Position numbers and translations under genes: made by a program
Shown here: in pieces, positions 2,020-59,571 of the stretch
Layout of the letters: each line of letters starts with the position of its first letter
Position numbering within the stretch: the stretch's first letter is position 1
The notes under the pieces: generated by a model
What the model was told of the DNA's origin: nothing
What the model saw: the letters and a program-made list of their open reading frames with translations, nothing else
Database searches by the model: none
Source of the DNA: Escherichia phage ECML-117
Sequence record: JX128258
DNA length: 64,000 bases
Direction: 5' to 3' (one strand)

Positions 2020-2310
2020 AGCGTATAATGACGTAAGATTTGGACCTATCCGTAGTTCACTCCACACACTTCTATGGTGCGCCGCGACTGGGTTCAGTGG
2101 TACATCTTACGGATGATACGGATGATACGCGTCGCCGCTATACTTTATACAACTTTGAAAAAAACAATTAACTCCATTTTGAATTAATTTAAATTAATTT
2201 TTTTCTACATCCTCATACTTATACTAAACTTATGTTTATACGTATTATCCGTAAGATATAAGTAAAAACAAAGACTTGCGGCAATACGGATGATACGTCA
2301 TGATACGCTT
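2020..2310 (+). promoter_or_regulatory. iteron/AT-rich regulatory element, copy A (candidate origin or operator-promoter module)
   Basis: CGTATAATGACGTA at 2022-2035; 45-nt block at 2104-2150 containing tandem GGATGATACG 9-10-mers; AT-rich core 2150-2250; further CGGATGATACG copies at 2285-2306; near-identical block at 18102-18148. Confidence 0.6.
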
Positions 2311-2535
2311 CAACCAGCCAGCAGCGGCTAAGTCATTGATTTGCATAACAAGCGGCGAAAGGGATGGATTTCTTTTATACGTATCAAACAGTACACCACG
2401 CACCACGGTCCGCTATTCATTCAGCACTATGATTTGTGTACTTTTACAGCCAATTTGAACATCAATCTGCACTTGAATATAATGTTCATTCATTGTATAA
2501 TTCACACTATTAATTTGCACTATGGGATTTGCACT

Positions 2536-3009
2536 ATGAGTCAAGATTATGTAGCAATGCCTGAAGACTTTGAAGACCCGCGATTTGCAGAGCATAATCA
2601 GGCATTATTCGATGAGTTCATTGACCTTGTTATTCAGGGCCATGACATGCGCGCAGCTTTTGCACTAGTATTTGGCATGGAGGTTGCGACCGATAACTAC
2701 ACTGGCCAGCGAATCCTCTGCACGCAACGCAATCCGTACTACAAGATGCGCTACAAAAAGCGTATGGAAGAGATGCCATTGAAGGAATTGTGGAGTGTAA
2801 AGAGTTCCATCCACAATTTAGTGAAGCTTGTGCGTGATCCAGAAGTCGCAGCATCAGCCAAGCTTAATGCCATTCGTGAACTGAATATCATCTACGGCAT
2901 CACGATGATTGATGAGAATGGCAATAGTAAAATGGGCCGTTCCATGGACGATTTCTACAAGGATTTTGGAGAGGCAGCCAAAGAGGGTGAGCAATTCTCC
3001 CGCCACTAG
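2536..3009 (+). CDS. hypothetical protein (157 aa)
   Basis: In-frame ATG 2536 inside ORF-track frame 2341..3009; the upstream part of that frame is AT-rich repeat DNA; no clear SD; start overlaps repeat copy 2. Confidence 0.45.
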   Translation: MSQDYVAMPEDFEDPRFAEHNQALFDEFIDLVIQGHDMRAAFALVFGMEVATDNYTGQRILCTQRNPYYKMRYKKRMEEMPLKELWSVKSSIHNLVKLVRDPEVAASAKLNAIRELNIIYGITMIDENGNSKMGRSMDDFYKDFGEAAKEGEQFSRH

Positions 3010-3028
3010 CCAATTTGCACTATAAAAC

Positions 3029-3062
3029 GGCCCTAGAACACATTTTCTCCACTTCTAGGGCC
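3029..3062 (+). other. perfect 10-bp stem-loop (possible terminator or RNA element)
   Basis: GGCCCTAGAA ... TTCTAGGGCC with 14-nt loop, 20 nt after the 2536..3009 stop; no T-run. Confidence 0.45.
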
Positions 3063-3407
3063 ATCGGTAATACGACGGGGAAGGTTACAACCATAAACGC
3101 TTTAGAAAGTGTATTATTATAAGTCATCTTTTAGTCACTTTACGTAACAATTTACGACCTTCCGCCGTCCAGTCGAACGACTCCACCAGCAGATTTGCAC
3201 TATAACCTAAGACGATGCGCCCTTTCTCGTTATCGACCCGCCAACAAGTCTCGAATAGCATTCGATTTGCACTATTAACTATCGCCGCAACGCGCGTTGG
3301 GTAAGCGCAATTTGCACTATGGTCGTAAAGGGATAAGGTGCGACCACTTCCGATGGACAACGTAGCGATGAGAATAAGCGTATTCATAAGCCACCAATTT
3401 GCACTAT

Positions 3408-3431
3408 GAAAAGCGACCCCGAAGGGCCGCC
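3408..3431 (-). terminator. candidate rho-independent terminator (minus strand)
   Basis: On the minus strand GCGGCCC-TTCG-GGGTCGC imperfect hairpin followed by TTTTC, just after the 3438..4064 stop. Confidence 0.4.
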
Positions 3432-3437
3432 ATTCGA

Positions 3438-4064
3438 TTAGATAATCTGGAATGTGTAGGACTTGTTGCCGAACTCAAAGGTCAAGCGTCCAGCTTCTTT
3501 AAGCTTCATGCGGAAGCGAATGTGCTTGCTATCCGGTAATCCCAGCGCGGCGAACGCTACGCGGACCGATTTGAACTCGCCTACACCTTCGACCATGACG
3601 CCGTTACGGGTGAGACGCTTTTGCGCCACTTCCTTGTTATCCCAACTTTTTGCAATACCTTCGCTATTCGAACGGCGATGGGAAGGACTGGCAATTTTAT
3701 CCGCGCCAACCGGAGCATCATTCAGGCCGCTTTTAACGAAGGCTTCATATTCTTCGTCGGTCATCGCGTCGAGTTCTTCCTGGGTCGGCTCCGCTTTTTT
3801 AACGACCGCACGCGCTTTGTGCGTTTTTACATCGCTGGACACTTCCTCGCGCGGCTTCGCGTCTGGGATGGGCGATTCGTTGGACGGCTCATCGAGCGCG
3901 TTTAAGGACTCGATTAACGCGATGACGCGAGTCTCAGCGGTGCGACGGTCCGCAAACTTCTTAATCGGTTTTGAGCCGGAGTTAGCGTTATAGAATGCAA
4001 CGAGGTCGGCGGTCTTAGTTGCGATAACGTCGCCGCTAGTAGAGAAACGATTCAAGCTAACCAT
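3438..4064 (-). CDS. hypothetical early protein (208 aa) with acidic/lysine-rich linker
   Basis: ORF with AGGAG RBS; driven by the leftward promoter at 4134-4161; CpG-rich codon usage unlike the structural genes. Confidence 0.6.
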   Translation of the reverse strand: MVSLNRFSTSGDVIATKTADLVAFYNANSGSKPIKKFADRRTAETRVIALIESLNALDEPSNESPIPDAKPREEVSSDVKTHKARAVVKKAEPTQEELDAMTDEEYEAFVKSGLNDAPVGADKIASPSHRRSNSEGIAKSWDNKEVAQKRLTRNGVMVEGVGEFKSVRVAFAALGLPDSKHIRFRMKLKEAGRLTFEFGNKSYTFQII

Positions 4065-4133
4065 AATAAACTCCTAGTTTGGGAGCGGCGTTAACGACCT
4101 ATTCGCTAACTCATCCCGTCCCGATATGAGTAC

Positions 4134-4161
4134 ATTATAATATAGTGTAGAAAAAAGTAAA
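4134..4161 (-). promoter_or_regulatory. sigma70-like promoter (leftward)
   Basis: Minus strand: TTTACT (-35) - 16 nt - TATAAT (-10); -35 embedded in CGAAAAAGTGCTTTACT, the same 17-mer that precedes the promoter at 4604. Confidence 0.5.
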
Positions 4162-4205
4162 GCACTTTTTCGATAAAAATGCGATAAATTATTTTATCTT
4201 TTTTC

Positions 4206-4233
4206 TTTACTTCTTCGTACACTCGCGTATACT
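4206..4233 (+). promoter_or_regulatory. sigma70-like promoter (rightward)
   Basis: TTTACT - 16 nt - TATACT upstream of gene 4290; shares CTTTACTTCTTCGTACACT with the promoter at 4604. Confidence 0.5.
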
Positions 4234-4289
4234 TGTTTATATCGAGACGGGCGATGGCCCTTCCTTCTACTAGCATCGGGAGCTTTATT

Positions 4290-4592
4290 ATGACTACTTT
4301 AATCTCTTCCATCCTTACTTACGACGAAGACCGTTTAACCGTTCGCTCTCTTATCGCCGCCGTTAACGCGGAACTAGAATCTAGCGCCATTAAGGTCCGC
4401 GCGGTCGCCTTCATCGGCCTTTCCTTCGACGATATGAAGTACGCCGAACGTAGCGCCATCCGCTTCGCGAAGACCGACGACGAAGCCGTTACCCTTATCG
4501 AGACGGTTACGCCGCGCGGCGAAGCGTTAATTATCGTCGAGTATATCGACGTAGAAGGCGATAAATCTTATAAACATTTTATCGCAGAATGA
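4290..4592 (+). CDS. small acidic protein (100 aa), early gene
   Basis: ATG 4290 with GGGAG RBS; net acidic; N-terminus MTTLISSI resembles the next gene's MITLAAI. Confidence 0.55.
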   Translation: MTTLISSILTYDEDRLTVRSLIAAVNAELESSAIKVRAVAFIGLSFDDMKYAERSAIRFAKTDDEAVTLIETVTPRGEALIIVEYIDVEGDKSYKHFIAE

Positions 4593-4603
4593 CGAAAAAG
4601 TGC

Positions 4604-4632
4604 TTTACTTCTTCGTACACTAAGACTATAAT
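4604..4632 (+). promoter_or_regulatory. sigma70-like promoter (rightward)
   Basis: TTTACT - 17 nt - TATAAT; preceded by CGAAAAAGTG upstream element. Confidence 0.55.
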
Positions 4633-4699
4633 GTTTTATATCGAGAGGGGATGAGGTAGCGAATAGGTCGCTACCCTCCCGACTAACTAGGAGAATATT

Positions 4700-4990
4700 A
4701 TGATTACTTTAGCCGCTATCCGTTCCGCTCGCGTCGAAACTTCCGAAAACTCTAACGTATTTGGCGAAACCTTAGAGAGCGTTTATCTCTCTAACGTAGA
4801 CGCAACTATCGAGTCTATTTATGAGCCGATCAACTTTCTCGACCTTTACAAGTATCGCGACGAGGACATCGTATCCTACCGCGTAACGATTAACGGCTTC
4901 GTTTATACGATCACCGAAATCGGCGGCGAATATATAGCTGTACCGCAACTCGGCGGCGAAGTAACTTACTTTAAAATCGTAAGCCTTTAA
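4700..4990 (+). CDS. small acidic protein (96 aa), early gene
   Basis: AGGAGAA RBS; net acidic; possible paralogue of the 4290 gene. Confidence 0.55.
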   Translation: MITLAAIRSARVETSENSNVFGETLESVYLSNVDATIESIYEPINFLDLYKYRDEDIVSYRVTINGFVYTITEIGGEYIAVPQLGGEVTYFKIVSL

Positions 4991-5001
4991 GGAGAAGAAA
5001 G

Positions 5002-5211
5002 ATGACTAATATGAATAACTCTCTTAACGCGCGCGCCCATCGCACCGCCGTAATCGATATGTTTCGCGAGCTTAAGGAATTATGCGATAATATGAACGCG
5101 ATGTTATCCATCGGCGGCTGGGGATACGAAGAAGAAGTTAAATACGCGGTTATGCGTCGCCGTCGCGATAACGTCCTTGGACAAATTAAACGCGCCGGAT
5201 TATTCCTTTAA
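5002..5211 (+). CDS. small protein (69 aa)
   Basis: AAGGAGAAG RBS; followed by a terminator. Confidence 0.5.
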   Translation: MTNMNNSLNARAHRTAVIDMFRELKELCDNMNAMLSIGGWGYEEEVKYAVMRRRRDNVLGQIKRAGLFL

Positions 5212-5237
5212 TTATAATCACCCACCGTTACTAATAG

Positions 5238-5262
5238 GCCGCGCTTAGTCGCGGCTTTTCTT
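5238..5262 (+). terminator. rho-independent terminator
   Basis: GCCGCG-CTTAGT-CGCGGC hairpin followed by TTTTCTT. Confidence 0.55.
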
Positions 5263-5381
5263 CGTCCCTATCTCAATGCGCTTCTCCGCGAAAATTCCTT
5301 TATCCTTCCCTTCGTCGTCGCATAATCTTCGTCGAGATGCTCCTTAGTTCGCATAACGGGTATTACGTTAAATGGAGAACA

Positions 5382-5457
5382 TCGCGTAAGTCCTTGTTTT
5401 ATATAGACACCTATATCGGACCGTTAAGGCGGGTCGCGTAAGTCGTTGTTTTATAAA
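5382..5457 (+). repeat. direct repeat, 2 x 24 bp (TCGCGTAAGTCNTTGTTTTATANA)
   Basis: Copies at 5382-5405 and 5434-5457 in non-coding DNA. Confidence 0.6.
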
Positions 5458-5733
5458 GGCGCAAAACTTTCCCTTCGTTCCGAACTAAAACGAGAAATAT
5501 GCGGACCCTTCGCCCGAAAATAGTACGCATGCGAAATTACCGACATCTAGAATAATCCCCGCCGATATTATCCTACACGCAATCATTAGCCTTCGAATCA
5601 TTATGCTTCATATTATTATGCATCGAATCATTCGCTTTCGAATTGTAACGCTGGAAACTGTAACGGCGATTGATTATTGCGTTCGTGTGGTTTTTATGGC
5701 ATGGGTCTTTTGGTGCGTTTTGGTACTTGATGA

Positions 5734-12895: not shown

Positions 12896-13713
12896 CAATT
12901 AAAGCATTCCGTGCTGAAGGTCGAGTTTTCTTGCGGCAAACGACCTGGCACGGAATCGCTTACCCGCCCTTACTGCCTGTCGAATCTTCTTTTGCAAACA
13001 CTTACGATCAAAATCGTTGCGGTCGACGGCTTCGAGTAAATCACGACGCAGAGCACCCAGTGTCGACTTTTCAGAGACTTCAACGCCCAGCGCCGCTGCA
13101 ACGTCTTTCAAAACATCGAGTTCGGTTAAAGTTCTCATTTGATAATCCCCTTGATGTCTGATTCTGCCATAAAGATTGGAGTTCCGCCGCCAGGAACAAT
13201 CGAGCGCGTGACTTTATCAAACATATCGTTTTCTTCAACTTGAATACGATAGAATTTATTTTTGGATGAAGATGGGCACAATCCCATAAATTTGCCGATT
13301 CCGCGAACGCATTCATCTTCAAAGTATACTGTTTCACCTTGGATGGAGTCGATGTCGTCTACTGGATAGACCTTGCGACCCAATAGCCACTCGTCCATAG
13401 TCGCCTGCAAGACGTTTCGCGCATCTAAAATCCACGGGTCAATAGTAGCACCTTCGTATCGCGCAGCAGTGGCCTTTGCCAGTTCTTCATATTCGCATAC
13501 GTTAACGACTTCGCCGTTGTGCAAGACGACAAATACAATTGTTGTGCTCATTTCAATCTCCTTTCGTTTGGTTAACTAAAATATAACTCAAAATGATGCA
13601 AAAGCAAAATATTTTATGAACTATTTATGATCACCATACATATCATTTGCTTACAAACACATGAATATTTATAATATAGATTGATTCCCTTTCACTGTCA
13701 GGTGGCGTTAACA

Positions 13714-17880: not shown

Positions 17881-18018
17881 ATGCAAAAGATTATCCAGTC
17901 ACGTTACGTTAAAGTGCGAAATATTAATTGCAACTCTTTGCTTTCTTGGAAATGGGCTGTTTACGACTCGATGCTGATTGGCGTTTTAGTTGCTGGAGTG
18001 CTTTTTAATATTCACTGA
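17881..18018 (+). CDS. tiny membrane protein (45 aa)
   Basis: AGAGGA RBS 6 nt before ATG; one hydrophobic helix. Confidence 0.35.
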   Translation: MQKIIQSRYVKVRNINCNSLLSWKWAVYDSMLIGVLVAGVLFNIH

Positions 18019-18049
18019 ATCGCCTGGCAATGGATTGTCGCAGGATTTT

Positions 18050-18330
18050 ACGCGTATAATGACGTATCATCCGTATCAAGTAAGTAGTTGTTTTCAAAAG
18101 AATCTTACGGATGATACGGATGATACGCGTTGCCGCGATACTTTATAGGAATTCAAATAAATTAATTTAAAATTATATATCTAATTTAATTTTATTTTTT
18201 TATAAACTCTTATATATGAAAAGTATCCGTATCATCCGTATCATCCGTAGCACACCAGTGATAGCGCGGCTTATACACCGATACGGATAAAAAATACGCC
18301 TCATCTTATCCGTATCATCCGTATCACACT
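18050..18330 (+). promoter_or_regulatory. iteron/AT-rich regulatory element, copy B
   Basis: CGTATAATGACGTA at 18053-18066; 45-nt block at 18102-18148 (about 44/47 identity to 2104-2150); CCGTATCATCCGTATC arrays at 18063-18077, 18225-18248 and 18309-18326; AT-rich core 18146-18225. Confidence 0.6.
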
Positions 18331-18383
18331 AATTAAGGCGCGGCTATATCGGCTGTTATACATATTCAAACCATAATTATTGT

Positions 18384-18412
18384 TTGCCTAAGTTTTTTTC
18401 ATTAGATATAAT
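18384..18412 (+). promoter_or_regulatory. sigma70-like promoter for the capsid gene block
   Basis: TTGCCT - 17 nt - TATAAT, 24 nt upstream of the RBS/start of gene 18436. Confidence 0.5.
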
Positions 18413-18435: not shown

Positions 18436-19854
18436 ATGCGAATGCAAACGGCACGCGAAATTGACAAAAATGGATTCTTGACGATTGTGGGTTGTCCCAT
18501 TTCGTCATTTGGCATTTTTGATTATTCTGCAGGTCAGGTTGGACTTGATGGTGATCCGAATCGCATCGTAAAAGTTTATCGCCCAGAGTCAGCGGTGAAA
18601 GACCCCGAAGCGATAGATTCATTCAAAAATATCCCTTTCATCGACAATCACGAAATGCTTTCTGGATTCGAAGGTGATGAGGATAACACAGCACCCGAAG
18701 AGTATGGCGTTGATGGCGTTCTAACTGGCAATGTTTATTATGACAAGCCATGGATGCGCGGCGACCTTAAAGTTTTTAGCCGTCGTCTGAAGAAGGCCAT
18801 CGACTCTGGAAAGGTTGACTTGTCTTTGGGCTATGACTGTGAATTCATCATACAGTCTGGAGAGTTTGACGGGCAGCCGTATGAAGTGGTACAGACAACT
18901 CTTCGCGGCAACCACATTGCTCTCGTGGACGTTGGTCGAGTACCAGGTGCACGGGTGCTGGATGGTCGTTGCTTTGACCATCTTTGTTTGACGACTGTAA
19001 CACCATCCAACGAGGATTTAGACATGCCAAAACCGTTAAAAGGTAAAGCGCGTGATAATGCTGTTGAACAGCTGAAATCACTGATCCCTGCGCTCGAACA
19101 ATTTCTGAATGAAGAGAGCACCGAAGCTGCTCATCAGGACGAAGTTGAAGTGAAAGCAGAAGAGAAGGATTCAACCGAAGAACGTGAAGAAGTGATGGTT
19201 GATCCAGAAGTCAAAGCAGAAGCTGAAGAGACTCCAGAAGGTGAAGAGAAGTTTGAATTTGAAACTGAATCTCACGCTGGCGGCGAGCTTCCGCAACTGA
19301 TCAGCCAAATCGAAGCACTTATTGCAAAACTGAAAGGTGGCGCGGTAGGTGATGAAGAAGAAGTTGAAGCCGAAGTCAAAGACGAAGAAGTTGAAGTCAA
19401 GGCTGAAGATGTATCACCTTGCGACAAAGCTGAAGATGTGGTTAGCGGCCTGCAAAACAGCAACGTAAAGGGGGCTTCGGTCGAAAAAGATGACAAACCG
19501 ACAAAAGCGGCGAAAGCGTCGCCAGGTCCAGCAAAAGGGGAACACTCAATGGCATCTGATTCAGCAGTTGCTGCTTTCTACGCTGATTCTGCTCGTAAGA
19601 ATAGCCTCTACCAGCGCCTGTCTAAAGTTGTTGGTGCCTTTGATCATGCAACTATGGACTCCAAGTCCGTAGCGAAATATGGCGCTAAAAAGTTAGGCTT
19701 GAAGTGCGTTGATGGTGCTGAGTTTGACGTGGTGGATAATTATCTGCGCGGCGTTGAACACGGTCAAAAACAGCGTGTAGTCGCAAAACAAAAGGCCGCT
19801 GCGGATTCTGCAGCAACTGACGAAGCGTTTGAAGCTTGGTTGAAAGGGGAATAA
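18436..19854 (+). CDS. prohead protease/scaffold-like protein with acidic C-terminal region
   Basis: 472 aa; Glu-rich low-complexity C-terminal half typical of scaffolds; sits before the major capsid gene. Confidence 0.45.
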   Translation: MRMQTAREIDKNGFLTIVGCPISSFGIFDYSAGQVGLDGDPNRIVKVYRPESAVKDPEAIDSFKNIPFIDNHEMLSGFEGDEDNTAPEEYGVDGVLTGNVYYDKPWMRGDLKVFSRRLKKAIDSGKVDLSLGYDCEFIIQSGEFDGQPYEVVQTTLRGNHIALVDVGRVPGARVLDGRCFDHLCLTTVTPSNEDLDMPKPLKGKARDNAVEQLKSLIPALEQFLNEESTEAAHQDEVEVKAEEKDSTEEREEVMVDPEVKAEAEETPEGEEKFEFETESHAGGELPQLISQIEALIAKLKGGAVGDEEEVEAEVKDEEVEVKAEDVSPCDKAEDVVSGLQNSNVKGASVEKDDKPTKAAKASPGPAKGEHSMASDSAVAAFYADSARKNSLYQRLSKVVGAFDHATMDSKSVAKYGAKKLGLKCVDGAEFDVVDNYLRGVEHGQKQRVVAKQKAAADSAATDEAFEAWLKGE

Positions 19855-44835: not shown

Positions 44836-44909
44836 TTTGTATTCCTCTGTTTCGTTTCGATGAAGTAATTATGACTCATCTTCCCTGACAAGTCAAATTA
44901 TTTTTGATA

Positions 44910-46433
44910 TTAATTCATCTTTTTGCCGTCGAGGATGTGATCAGCAAGCATAGACTTCATACTTAGTGAACGCTGAATTTCTTCGTCGATGGTATCAACA
45001 CCAATAAAATCAACATACAATACGCTTGATTTTGTTCCGATGCGGTGATTTCGGTCTTCGGATTGCTTGCGCAACTCGTTGTCATAGTTGCAAGAATAGT
45101 AGATTGCCAAGTCAGCGGCGGTAAGCGTGATGCCGATGCCTGCCGCTGCAGCGTGGCAAACCAATACCTGTGTTCCGCCATTCGCCACTGTGTTCTTCTG
45201 GAAGTCATCAATTAAGAACTCGCGTTGCTCTTTTGACGTTTCACCGTTGTATACACCAGTGACCACGCCTTCAGACTCAAGCCAATCCTTAATCTGGTTC
45301 ATCTCTTCCTTAAAGATGGCCCAAACAATGAATTTGCGCTCTGGGTCATCTTCCAACACCCCTTCCACATAGTCCTTAAATGCCGTGAATCGTGGGTTGT
45401 CTTCCATGTAGACCATCTCATCATACACCTTAACAAAGCCGGATGTCACCTGCTTCATCTTAGTGCGCGACGCGATCATCTCAAACTTGACGTTTTCTTC
45501 TTCGCCTTTGTACTCCATCAGATAGTTGTACTCATTCTTGAGTTCATCGTAAACATCGCGTTGTTTAGGCGACAACTCGAAGTCAATAAACTTGTACACC
45601 TTCTCTGGAAGGTCCGGCAAGTATTCCGCTTTTGTCGCACGAAAATAGTGCGGTTCCATCAGCCGGATAAGCTTGTCAAGGTTTTTGTACATCGGTCGGC
45701 CAAACTGGTCTTTGCGCGGCACTTGCGGAATCCCATGGCCATTGCCGCCGATTTTCTTGAGGATGGCTTGCATCTCTGGGTCGTGCGCTTCAAGTAGCAC
45801 CGTGAATTCAGAGTTGAATGCACGGAATGATTTGGTGCCGAGCAAGCCTGCTTCAAGGAAGTGGTATTGCATGTAAATATCCGCAGGCGAGCGCGGCAAC
45901 GGCGTGCCAGAAAGGATTCGACGGGCCTTTGCCAGCCGTCCCAATTCCACAACCTTGATGGAGCGTTTTGCTGTGTTATTCTTGATTCGCGTTGATTCGT
46001 CGATAATCATCAGGCAGCGGTATTTCTTCAAGACCGACTCGATGTGTTGATAACCGACTGGTGTGTTGACTGTGTCGATGTTGAATGAGAAAATGCGCGC
46101 AGGCACTTCGCCTTCAGGGTAGTGATCAGCAAACATCTTCTCCCAAAGCGCCTTGCCCTTTTTAGTCTTCATCTTGTCATTGCCGCGCCAGTAGTGCCCA
46201 ATCCACTTGATGGAAAGGTGTTCTGGTGCTTCACGACGAATCCAGTTTGAGTGGACACCGTTTGGAGCGATGACGACCATGGCATCGAACGCGCCAGCGA
46301 CGAAGTGCTTTTCAAACTCTGCCAAAGCGGTCCAAGTTTTACCAAGACCCTGTTCCATGAAATAGGCAAAGTATTTTCTGCGGCCTGCTTTATCAAGCGC
46401 CAGAAGCTGGTGGCGCATCCCTTGTGTTTTCAT
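44910..46433 (-). CDS. SNF2-family helicase/ATPase
   Basis: Walker A GLGKTW, DEST box (DESTRIKN), C-terminal helicase motifs. Confidence 0.75.
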   Translation of the reverse strand: MKTQGMRHQLLALDKAGRRKYFAYFMEQGLGKTWTALAEFEKHFVAGAFDAMVVIAPNGVHSNWIRREAPEHLSIKWIGHYWRGNDKMKTKKGKALWEKMFADHYPEGEVPARIFSFNIDTVNTPVGYQHIESVLKKYRCLMIIDESTRIKNNTAKRSIKVVELGRLAKARRILSGTPLPRSPADIYMQYHFLEAGLLGTKSFRAFNSEFTVLLEAHDPEMQAILKKIGGNGHGIPQVPRKDQFGRPMYKNLDKLIRLMEPHYFRATKAEYLPDLPEKVYKFIDFELSPKQRDVYDELKNEYNYLMEYKGEEENVKFEMIASRTKMKQVTSGFVKVYDEMVYMEDNPRFTAFKDYVEGVLEDDPERKFIVWAIFKEEMNQIKDWLESEGVVTGVYNGETSKEQREFLIDDFQKNTVANGGTQVLVCHAAAAGIGITLTAADLAIYYSCNYDNELRKQSEDRNHRIGTKSSVLYVDFIGVDTIDEEIQRSLSMKSMLADHILDGKKMN

Positions 46434-51664: not shown

Positions 51665-51729
51665 TTATTTATCCTTTTTGGACTTCGTTTCGATGAGATA
51701 AATATAACTCATCGAAACGCACAAGTAAA

Positions 51730-52602
51730 CTATTTATTGAAATTAATATTGTGGGTGTTGACGAGACGTTCACACATGGCGCTGTAAACACCATCGTCGT
51801 GTATAGAGTCTTCGTGCTTCAGGCCGCTGATTGCAAAGCGTGTAAGCTTGACAATCTTAAGCTCGAACAGATGCCACATGTGGTAGTCTTCCGGCGTTTT
51901 CAACGTTACGCCATTAGGGAAAAGCACCTGCATAACCTGGCCAACCATCACGGCATTATCGCCATAGACAGCGTTGCGCTCACGGAAGGTTGCTGCCATT
52001 GCATCAAGAATATCGGCGGCAGTTGCCGGAGATTGTTCAACTTCCACAGTCTTAGTCTCTTCTTGTCCTGTTGCGCTTGGATCAATTGCTAATTGTTGCA
52101 CCACTTCACCTGCCTTGCAAAGATTAAATGTAAAAGCGATTTTATTTTGAGCAACGGAATTATAATACAATGCTTCATCTTGCATCCGCGCGAGCACGTC
52201 TTGTCGGTCGTCGAATACATTGATGATTCGATAATCGCCGTGCCGCAATGCGTGCGATAGCCATGCAGATTTCATAATAGTTGATGGACGTTTGTCGCCA
52301 TAGTCTCTCATCTTGATTGTAAATTCATCAAAAGGAAAAACATTGTCCAGACGTTCAAAAGTCACTTGTCTGTATTTTTCTGGCCTTGCAGTCCAATATT
52401 CAACCGCCTCACCGCGAAGAGATGCCGACTCTACTGCTGATGCAATGCGAGGATAGAACTGATCATAACCAATACCGCTGTGATAGTCATCATAGTCTGA
52501 CAACGGACCTGCCACCTTTATGCGGTCCAAGCGCCAACGGTCATCAAACAGCGTTCCGTCAAGGTCGAATACGTTTAATATTTGGTTATTTTTAATACTC
52601 AT
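51730..52602 (-). CDS. HAD-superfamily phosphatase/nucleotidase with extra C-terminal domain
   Basis: Motif I FDLDGTLFD near the N-terminus; additional ~110-aa C-terminal domain of unknown type. Confidence 0.55.
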   Translation of the reverse strand: MSIKNNQILNVFDLDGTLFDDRWRLDRIKVAGPLSDYDDYHSGIGYDQFYPRIASAVESASLRGEAVEYWTARPEKYRQVTFERLDNVFPFDEFTIKMRDYGDKRPSTIMKSAWLSHALRHGDYRIINVFDDRQDVLARMQDEALYYNSVAQNKIAFTFNLCKAGEVVQQLAIDPSATGQEETKTVEVEQSPATAADILDAMAATFRERNAVYGDNAVMVGQVMQVLFPNGVTLKTPEDYHMWHLFELKIVKLTRFAISGLKHEDSIHDDGVYSAMCERLVNTHNINFNK

Positions 52603-55055: not shown

Positions 55056-55901
55056 TTATTCCGCTTGATCACCGTCTTCGGCATCGTCGTTGGATTCAAC
55101 ATCGACAAACTCGATGTGACCCATCTCTTCCAGCTTGCTCAGGTAGGAGCGAACGGAAGCGCCAAACAGTTGATCTTTAACTTTTTCGCCCAGCTCATCG
55201 ATAGACTGCGCCACGCCAACTTCGCCTTCTTTGATCGCCGCCAGAACGCGTCCACGGGTGGAGTGCTCTTGCGGCTGGCTCAGGCCATTGCCAGTGTAGA
55301 TGAAGTGAGTAGCTTTTGCACGACGCTGACCGTTTGCCTTTTTAGCGGCCTTACGTTCTGCGATGGCTTTGCGACGTTCTTCAGCTTCTTTCTTACGCTG
55401 TTCTTTCTGCTGTTCTGCAGCTTCTTTCGCCGCAATCTTAGCAGCTTCACGCTCTGCCTTGCGTTTCGCTTTAGCTTCTTCTTTAGCCTTCTCTTTTTCG
55501 GCCTTCGCTGCAGCACGGGCTTGATCACGCTCTGCTTTCTTAGCAGCAGCTTGCTCAGCTTTCAGACGCTTGGCTTCTTCTTTAGCCTTCGCCTTTTCGA
55601 TTTCTTTTGCTGCTTTAGCGGCTTCACGCTCTGCCTTCTTAGCAGCAGCCTTTTCTGCACGCTCTTTGGCTTTCTTCGCTGCTTCTTCAGCACGTTTCTG
55701 AGCCTTCTCATCAGCAGCCTGCTTACGTTTCAGTGCAGCTTCTTCACGCTTGGCTTGTTTTTCCTGCTCACGCTTTTGGCGTTTTTCTTCGGCTTCTTTC
55801 TTTTTAGCCAGGCGTTTTTCTTCAGCCACGCGACGACGTTCTGCTGCAGCTGCTTGTTTTTCTTCTTTAGATAATACTTTGATTGCTTCGGCCATGTTCA
55901 C
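55056..55901 (-). CDS. Lys/Ala/Glu-rich coiled-coil protein with C-terminal globular domain
   Basis: About 190 aa of AEEKR/AKKA low-complexity repeats, then a ~80-aa non-repetitive acidic C-terminus; DNA shows internal tandem repeats. Confidence 0.55.
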   Translation of the reverse strand: MNMAEAIKVLSKEEKQAAAAERRRVAEEKRLAKKKEAEEKRQKREQEKQAKREEAALKRKQAADEKAQKRAEEAAKKAKERAEKAAAKKAEREAAKAAKEIEKAKAKEEAKRLKAEQAAAKKAERDQARAAAKAEKEKAKEEAKAKRKAEREAAKIAAKEAAEQQKEQRKKEAEERRKAIAERKAAKKANGQRRAKATHFIYTGNGLSQPQEHSTRGRVLAAIKEGEVGVAQSIDELGEKVKDQLFGASVRSYLSKLEEMGHIEFVDVESNDDAEDGDQAE

Positions 55902-59307: not shown

Positions 59308-59571
59308 ATGGGCGCTTTCCGCAACGAGTTTATTTGGAACGTCACAAGCAGTCTTTCGACTTGTCCTAACTGTGCGAGCGATGTGATCAAGGTGCGGCAG
59401 CATCGCAGTGCAGAGGAAGGTGCCTGGGAGGACGGCGACCTTGTAGAGTGCCAGTGCTGCTCTCACGAAGGCGTGGTGGAGCTTTACGCAGGAGAAGGTT
59501 GTCCACCAGCAGAACGTTCAGCACGCGTTGAATGGGATGCGACAGACTCCATCGGTGATCCTCAACAGTAA
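59308..59571 (+). CDS. Cys-rich small protein (zinc-ribbon-like, 87 aa)
   Basis: CPNC ... CQCC Cys pairs; GAGGTG RBS before internal ATG 59308. Confidence 0.45.
   Translation: MGAFRNEFIWNVTSSLSTCPNCASDVIKVRQHRSAEEGAWEDGDLVECQCCSHEGVVELYAGEGCPPAERSARVEWDATDSIGDPQQ

Follow-up and report, generated by a model that had tools for sequence, protein, structure and literature searches.

A conserved, apparently uncut paralogue of the packaging site seems to precede the capsid operon in Wifcevirus and related phages

What is an array of short repeats doing between the head genes of a phage? The stretch of DNA that we analysed (64,000 nucleotides of Escherichia phage ECML-117, record JX128258; hereafter the window) comes from a Wifcevirus, a myovirus of E. 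coli with a genome of about 68 kb, and it is 99% identical to phages TH35, RCIP0363 and FEC19. Wifcevirus is a distant relative of Pbunavirus (10.1101/2024.09.12.612763). The repeats, which we call copy B, lie in a non-coding gap of 417 bp between the ORF of a 45-aa membrane protein and the prohead protease gene. An earlier note on this DNA had described them as copy B of an iteron element, had placed them inside the head-gene series and had suggested that they control a separately regulated capsid operon. The gene order that it gave agrees with the annotated relatives, where portal, a Mu-F-like head morphogenesis protein, head fibre and the 45-aa membrane ORF lie upstream and protease (DUF2213), a structural/scaffold protein and the major capsid protein downstream. 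A paralogous element, copy A, also exists, at 2013-2313. The features surrounding copy B are:

17881-18018, + strand: 45-aa membrane ORF, conserved, which precedes the copy-B-type element every time
18044-18345, no strand assigned: copy B, the whole repeat element, paralogue of 2013-2313
18384-18412, + strand: sigma-70-type promoter of the capsid operon, TTGCCT-17-TATAAT, 10/12, a consensus match only
18436-19854, + strand: prohead protease gene (DUF2213), whose start in annotated relatives is 18442

The unit of copy B is an 8-9 bp word of the CGTATCAT type, which recurs with a spacing of 9-10 bp in inverted arrays round an AT-rich core. From left to right, its parts are:

18053-18079, + strand: left outer array, three units (CGTATAATGA, CGTATCATC and CGTATCAA)
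18106-18127, - strand: left inner array, two full units and a partial unit, inverted
18130-18149, + strand: box at the left edge of the core, TTGCCGCG...ACTTTATAGG (TTGCCGCGATACTTTATAGG), lineage-invariant
18150-18223, no strand assigned: AT-rich core, 74 bp, 8% G+C, with internal palindromes
18224-18251, + strand: right inner array, three 9-bp units (TATCCGTATC, ATCCGTATC and ATCCGTAGC)
18262-18271, + strand: first CGCGGC box of the right side; the box polarity flips at the core
18280-18290, - strand: single inverted unit, GATACGGATAA
18306-18327, + strand: right outer array, two units
18336-18345, + strand: second CGCGGC box of the right side

These arrays are non-random and chance is excluded. 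The word CCGTATCAT occurs 5 times against 0.39 expected, a count reached by 0 of 100 shuffles, and the 10 exact matches of CGTATCAT in the 64 kb all fall within copy A or copy B. Furthermore, phage Bas101 is without exactly one 9-bp unit of the left inner array, which fits an array built of units. The arrangement supports the view that the arrays are organised like putative protein-binding sites.

Regarding the inverted repeats, the reverse complement that the earlier note reported for CGTATCATCCGTATC (18063-18077) is exact, although its right arm GATACGGATGATACG lies at 18113-18127 and not at 18110-18124, 3 nt away; the repeat search gave perfect arms of 16 nt (18063-18078 and 18112-18127). 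The two further arrays that it mentioned are real and are those listed above at 18224-18251 and 18306-18327. A perfect 22-nt inverted pair (18106-18127 and 18228-18249) brackets the core, and the dyad centre of the inner arms is 18177/18178. The proposed cruciform or hairpin has strong scores against shuffled sequences when folded as single-stranded DNA (z = -6.0 for 18050-18135 and z = -8.1 for 18104-18251). Nevertheless, this potential would be a by-product, because inverted arrays of putative binding sites surround the dyad centre, and copy A and all the relatives are alike in this respect. The Rfam scan of the whole window gave no match, and the terminator scan found no intrinsic-terminator-like site (a GC-rich hairpin with a T run) inside 18044-18345.

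A mosaic boundary falls in or near copy B, at 18035-18335, where the identity to phage Bas99 changes from about 87-93% upstream (16.2-18.2 kb) to 99-100% between about 18.3 and 22.3 kb. Other repeats were also seen in the window. Tandem repeats of about 99-102 nt lie at 55423-55658, in a part of the leftward-transcribed replication genes that has a strong AT skew. An element of 58-64 nt (TTCGTTTCGATGAG...ATAACTCATCGAAACG...) is present three times, at 13563-13620, 44851-44914 and 51684-51747, one copy being just upstream of the portal promoter; this may be another class of regulatory site.

Copy A shares the layout of copy B. In both copies, inverted arrays of the lineage-specific 8-9 bp word flank a palindromic AT-rich core about 100 bp wide, and lineage-invariant GCCGC/GCGGC boxes of opposite polarity flank this core. 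The order in copy A is box 1 (GCGTATAATGACGTA), a 46-nt box 2 (ATCTTACGGATGATACGGATGATACGCGT.GCCGC.ATACTTTATA), the AT-rich core, the repeats and an inverted box 1. Box 1 is found in the left outer array of copy B with 15/15 identical positions, and box 2 has 85-96% identity between the copies. The features of copy A and its surroundings are:

2013-2313, no strand assigned: copy A, with nested inverted arms 2101-2123/2238-2260 and 2016-2035/2294-2313
2175-2176, no strand assigned: left physical end of virion DNA (start of the direct terminal repeat), between ...TTAACTCC and ATTTTGAATT
2176-5710, no strand assigned: direct-terminal-repeat region of virions of the WFH/Ro157lw type, about 3.5 kb
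2455-2501: tandem sigma-70 promoters ahead of terS
2536-3009, + strand: small terminase (TerS) gene, homologue of E217 TerS (PDB 7UXE; E = 9e-33)

It is usual for pac sites to sit beside terS. Here terS is the first gene to the right of copy A, 360 bp downstream of the record start at 2175/2176, and it is annotated as small terminase in phage Mansfield. The terminus junction, ...TTAATTAACTCC followed by ATTTTGAATT, corresponds to window positions 2175/2176, and the dyad centre of the inner arms is 4-5 bp away. The records of WFH and WFC (one laboratory) and of Ro157lw (a second one) were deposited with terminal repeats and begin with the same nucleotide, 2176, and the Mansfield record from a third laboratory starts at the same site, opened at the PhageTerm boundary of a 3,673-bp repeat (PMC6753283, PMC6563267); these termini are the depositors' own analyses, by PhageTerm or coverage. 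Since records start there and a terS homologue adjoins it, copy A is the packaging/terminus site.

Some observations were made in passing around the terminal repeat. The right repeat boundary of WFC is 83 bp further right than those of WFH and Ro157lw. Close to the right boundary of the terminal repeat (about 5710), on its inner side, there are two CGAATCAT(T) words 30 bp apart, at 5594 and 5624, one mismatch from the word of copies A and B, together with two TGTAACG words, and AATTTGCAGTACAC is repeated beyond it, at about 5733 and 5832. Within the terminal repeat, a 119-aa ORF (4233-4592) is flanked by long inverted repeats at 4092-4172 and 4593-4673 (arms of 36 nt and 30 nt, 89-90% complementary). 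Clusters of a different repeat, ATTTGCACTAT(A/G)A, lie around and just after terS (2517-2551, 3003-3025 and 3183-3217), and related contigs have 8-9 occurrences of TAGTGCAA in a stretch of about 1 kb.

Also in copy A, the box CTATGGTGCGCCGCGACTGGG (2072-2096) is nearly identical in Serratia phage MyoSmar, which has two inverted copies of it flanking the core, the two genomes sharing only about 17% nucleotide identity. Within this box stands CTGGG, which in Pbunavirus 14-1 is reported as the core of a non-sigma-70 promoter motif. In Wifcevirus, the WFC/Ro157lw subgroup is without the box and has a different left arm of copy A. A search with this ultra-conserved copy-A box matched FEC19 and MyoSmar only.

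The earlier note had proposed looking in related phages for an insertion at this place in the structural operon, but copy B is not an insertion. A gap of the B type, from the small membrane ORF to the protease gene, is present with the same architecture in Pantoea phage PA1 (Kylevirus), in MyoSmar (Myosmarvirus) and in Pseudomonas phage PA8P1 (Pbunavirus). The analogue of copy B is therefore syntenic in four genera, counting Wifcevirus, and uncultured relatives have it as well. Each phage has its own repeat word: AACGGTTAT in 9-bp tandems in PA1, TACTTTTCGTTTT in MyoSmar and (T)TGGTAATT in PA8P1. The parts that do not vary between lineages are the GCCGC...TATA(T)AGG box at the left core edge (seen also in PA1, PA8P1 and uncultured contigs), the CGCGGC boxes of the right side and the TATAAT-type promoter-like sequence ahead of the protease gene.

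Each genus also has an analogue of copy A, with its own word, immediately upstream of terS, and in every lineage tested terS adjoins copy A. In MyoSmar the PhageTerm repeat boundary (3559) falls inside this analogue (PMC6753285). For Pbunavirus JG024, nanopore sequencing gave 161 long reads, 36 of which have their start at 59,376 +/- 5, and a pac fragment of matching position was seen (PMC10913387). That position, between ...CGAAAATC and GATTGCCC, lies in the core of the copy-A analogue and within 2 nt of the opening of the PA8P1 record; therefore the putative pac of JG024 is a homologous site.

Our scan of IMG/VR with protease and TerL profiles gave many uncultured lineages having a B-type element with words of their own (TTATCGGATA, CAACTATC, GAATAACC, GAACTTGCGG, AACTTACC and others). 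Because the TerS profile scan gave only 13 loci, we used TerL-centred loci to reach copy A in new lineages, leaving out several where copy A was more than 10 kb from TerL. In the two uncultured lineages for which both copies were retrieved, A and B share their word. A loose two-unit pattern scan of viral contigs yielded chance matches only among the matches listed.

Altogether, both copies are present in 6/6 lineages tested, and A matches B only within a lineage. The number of shared 8-mers between A and B is 29-50 within the same lineage and 7.5 on average (maximum 15) between different lineages, and the true A-B pairing scores highest among the 720 permutations of the six lineages. Counting the pentamers of the 12 elements of these lineages, there are 21 GCCGC and 3 GCGGC to the left of the core, and 0 and 31 respectively to the right. 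The similarity between A and B is patchy, with blocks conserved and spacers and cores diverged, which argues for selection acting on the words rather than for wholesale gene conversion. We rejected conservation within Wifcevirus as evidence of constraint: the right half of copy B and the neighbouring capsid genes are conserved to the same degree, since they belong to one block of 99-100% identity, and the comparison is uninformative for that reason.

By hand counts on the + strand, GCGGC:GCCGC is 76:43 in the rightward structural genes (13.7-40 kb) and 45:40, not reversed, in the leftward replication genes (40-57.8 kb), so this bias may not be simply a codon effect of the sense strand.

The comparison between lineages thus shows, by position and words, that copy B is an old paralogue of the packaging site, kept in synteny and sharing its repeat words. 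The reading that we put first, tentatively and at somewhat less than an even chance, is that copy B is a conserved, uncut paralogue of the pac/terminus region which may serve as a second binding platform for the pac-recognition protein, probably TerS.

Its main rival is a replication origin. Copy B, and perhaps also copy A, would then bind an initiator or primase-helicase through its repeats, unwind at the AT-rich core, and use the GCGGC boxes for priming or for loading the helicase. The arrays and the AT-rich core fit an origin equally well: direct repeats of one word, with units of 8-9 bp in both orientations, do stand beside an AT-rich region, short tandem and inverted repeats flank a core of 8% G+C, and in the 12 elements the GCCGC/GCGGC polarity flips at that core, with the boxes pointing outward. 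Furthermore, the phage has genes for a polymerase of its own, for helicases and for two primases, of which one is VirE/D5-like. The origins of T7 and T4 consist of a promoter plus AT-rich DNA, which the sigma-70 promoter predicted inside the core in Pbunavirus LMA2 recalls. However, the word iteron used by the earlier note implies replication, and this part of it is not supported. Neither copy contains a DnaA box (TTWTNCACA), and the Pfam and PHROGs scans of the neighbouring genes found no Rep-type protein, so no cognate initiator gene is recognised beside either copy. The scan for the IHF consensus gave nothing in copy B and one non-significant match (2329-2341) beside copy A. The units of 8-9 bp are also much shorter than classic iterons, which measure 17-22 bp, and the sole copy with experimental data, the paralogue copy A, is a packaging cut site and genome terminus. 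We consider the origin a serious but doubtful possibility.

Rather less probable, in our estimation, is a purely transcriptional role, the view of the earlier note, in which copy B would be a control region or long leader of the capsid operon, served by a dedicated regulator shared with terS, the genome end in copy A being unrelated. The near-consensus promoter announced by the earlier note is there (TTGCCT-17-TATAAT at 18384-18412), beginning 58 bp beyond the last array of copy B, and PA1 and MyoSmar have a similar promoter-like sequence ahead of the protease gene. In the record of LMA2 the depositors predicted two promoters, one before the protease gene and the sigma-70 one inside the core. 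Indeed, both copies lie upstream of near-consensus sigma-70 promoters of morphogenesis genes. A box of the TATAGG type is conserved at the core edge in all the lineages, and in Pbunavirus B CTGGG comes after it. In phage 14-1 this pentamer is reported as the core of a non-sigma-70 promoter motif (PMC10914365). Copy B may control the capsid operon, although not by simple occlusion of the promoter, because 58 bp separate the upstream arrays from the -35 hexamer. However, the late operons of TerL and portal have their own sigma-70-like promoters without repeats of the CGTATCAT type, and for this reason we rejected copy B as a general late-gene switch. The sole annotated 'transcriptional regulator' nearby (5002-5211) is absent outside Wifcevirus. 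In addition, a cut in the core of copy A in three genera, at the dyad centre in Wifcevirus, is hardly a coincidence.

Is copy B itself cut? It could be an additional pac site of weak use, where only a minority of packagings involve a cut. In favour of this, its architecture is that of the true site, the short-repeat arrays having the same layout in A and B. Moreover, the record of Pseudomonas phage E215 (MF490241) opens inside the core of the copy-B analogue, some 26 nt past the TATATAG box on the right. Nevertheless, copy B is intact in 27/27 Wifcevirus records and in 294/297 Pbunavirus records. The 3 split ones include at least 2 that are E215 (its GenBank and RefSeq copies), the only genome identified among the 297 as opened in the B core, and we set this opening aside as an assembly break because nothing else supports cleavage. 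The end of a metagenomic contig at the equivalent of window position 18102 was likewise dismissed as an assembly break, at a 46-nt repeat common to A and B. The cut sequence of copy A (AACTCC/ATTTT) is absent from copy B and is not at the equivalent place in Wifcevirus or Pbunavirus, and the long-read study of JG024 reports a single peak of read starts (PMC10913387). A genome end at the cleavage position is found in copy A and not in copy B, which does not lie in or next to the small-terminase gene and precedes the protease gene instead. Copy B is apparently uncut, with no independent evidence for a genome end there, and a cryptic pac site is quite unlikely.

Unlikelier still, to the point of being hardly credible, is a selfish or accidental duplication without function (a MITE-like insertion or a recent gene conversion, which the 85-96% identity of box 2 could reflect), since the comparative data contradict it: position and architecture are the same in lineages sharing <20% nucleotide identity, the words differ between lineages and match within each, and the spacers have diverged.

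Returning to the second binding platform, the words match within and not between lineages, from which we infer that one phage-encoded, lineage-specific DNA-binding protein would recognise both copies. This protein is most probably the small terminase, because it is the conserved protein encoded beside copy A in every lineage and because its ring could wrap about 100 bp. In the B copies of Wifcevirus, PA1 and MyoSmar, about 100 bp separate the inner arms. By a rough geometric estimate, a decameric TerS ring that takes up 9 bp with each subunit would need about this much DNA for a single turn. Against TerS as the binder counts the purified small terminase of E217, whose structure is solved and which nevertheless had no appreciable DNA binding in vitro (PMC9611059).

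Two other proteins encoded near copy A were considered. Every lineage examined encodes, close to terS and copy A, a conserved 208-aa protein (3438-4064, - strand; phrog_4730) for which Pfam and PDB gave no match. It is present twice in MyoSmar and is an alternative candidate reader of the repeats. The 69-aa PHROG 'transcriptional regulator' (5002-5211) was rejected as a family-wide binder because it has no homologue outside Wifcevirus.

As for what a bound complex might do at copy B, we can only speculate that it does not lead to cleavage and that it may tune the promoter of the capsid operon 58 bp away, coupling the supply of proheads to the terminase. Alternatively, copy B and the true pac site may be brought together, in the way that has been suggested for the double rings of T4 gp16 (PMC3012670). 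That TerS or another pac-recognition protein uses a non-cleaved copy of pac at the capsid operon in one of these ways, coupling prohead production to packaging or synapsing two pac-type DNAs, is a proposal to which we would give only a minor share of belief.

The literature searched gave no description of the paired A/B elements; earlier traces in the records are the two predicted promoters of LMA2 and a bare 24-nt 'repeat_region' in a few Pbunavirus records. The position of pac in JG024 was known before (PMC10913387); what is new is a pac-type site with a conserved uncut twin. The A/B pairing across PB1-like (Pbunavirus-related) phages points to an undescribed link between packaging and capsid genes. 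If a pac-recognition protein does use copy B as proposed above, pac sites in this group of phages would have a further role that is conserved and defined by sequence. For terminases such as that of E217, the lineage-specific words provide one concrete candidate recognition sequence per lineage. The packaging site is now placed precisely and has a conserved twin at the capsid operon, which sharpens the questions of how the terminase finds its DNA and of whether packaging is wired to capsid production or to replication. This is also worth taking into account in the engineering and rebooting of these phages, where neither element can safely be taken as dispensable intergenic DNA.

Several known systems resemble this pair in part. 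Terminase sites built of repeats include pacL-pacC-pacR of SPP1, the pac of P1 with hexamer repeats on both sides, and the R-sites of lambda cosB. Copy A fits them fully, with arrays of a short word on both sides of the cleavage region and the small-terminase gene adjoining. However, the present phage has a second full copy 16-20 kb away, before the capsid operon and apparently uncut, which is kept in the six lineages tested; to our knowledge no such partner site has been described for SPP1, P1 or lambda. Among phages closer to ours, the putative pac of JG024 at 59,376 is the homologous site, since it maps to the core of the copy-A analogue of Pbunavirus; that study gave the position only, the repeat architecture and the second copy being additions made here (PMC10913387). 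Headful packaging is the mode of Pbunaviruses, whereas the DNA of Wifcevirus has fixed ends and a terminal repeat of 3.5-3.8 kb. In T4, two separated DNA sites have been proposed to be bound by one assembly of the small terminase gp16, which is like the pairing considered above; nevertheless, the T4 pac sites are within coding sequence, weakly defined and inferred from gene amplifications (PMC3012670), whereas the elements described here are conserved and intergenic.

Two-site replication systems of phages, namely oriL/oriR of SPP1 and ori/crr of P4, have repeats that bind a known initiator. They are similar in having two distant clusters of one repeat beside AT-rich DNA, and one of the SPP1 sites lies among late genes, as copy B does. 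Unlike in SPP1 and P4, one of the copies here is a packaging cut site and an initiator is not recognised beside the copies. Finally, T7, with its promoter-plus-AT-rich origins and the end-proximal phiOL and phiOR, also has similar elements both close to a genome end and some 15-20% of the way along the genome, and its DNA too carries direct terminal repeats, but T7 uses the promoters of its own RNA polymerase, without lineage-specific arrays of 8-9 bp repeats.
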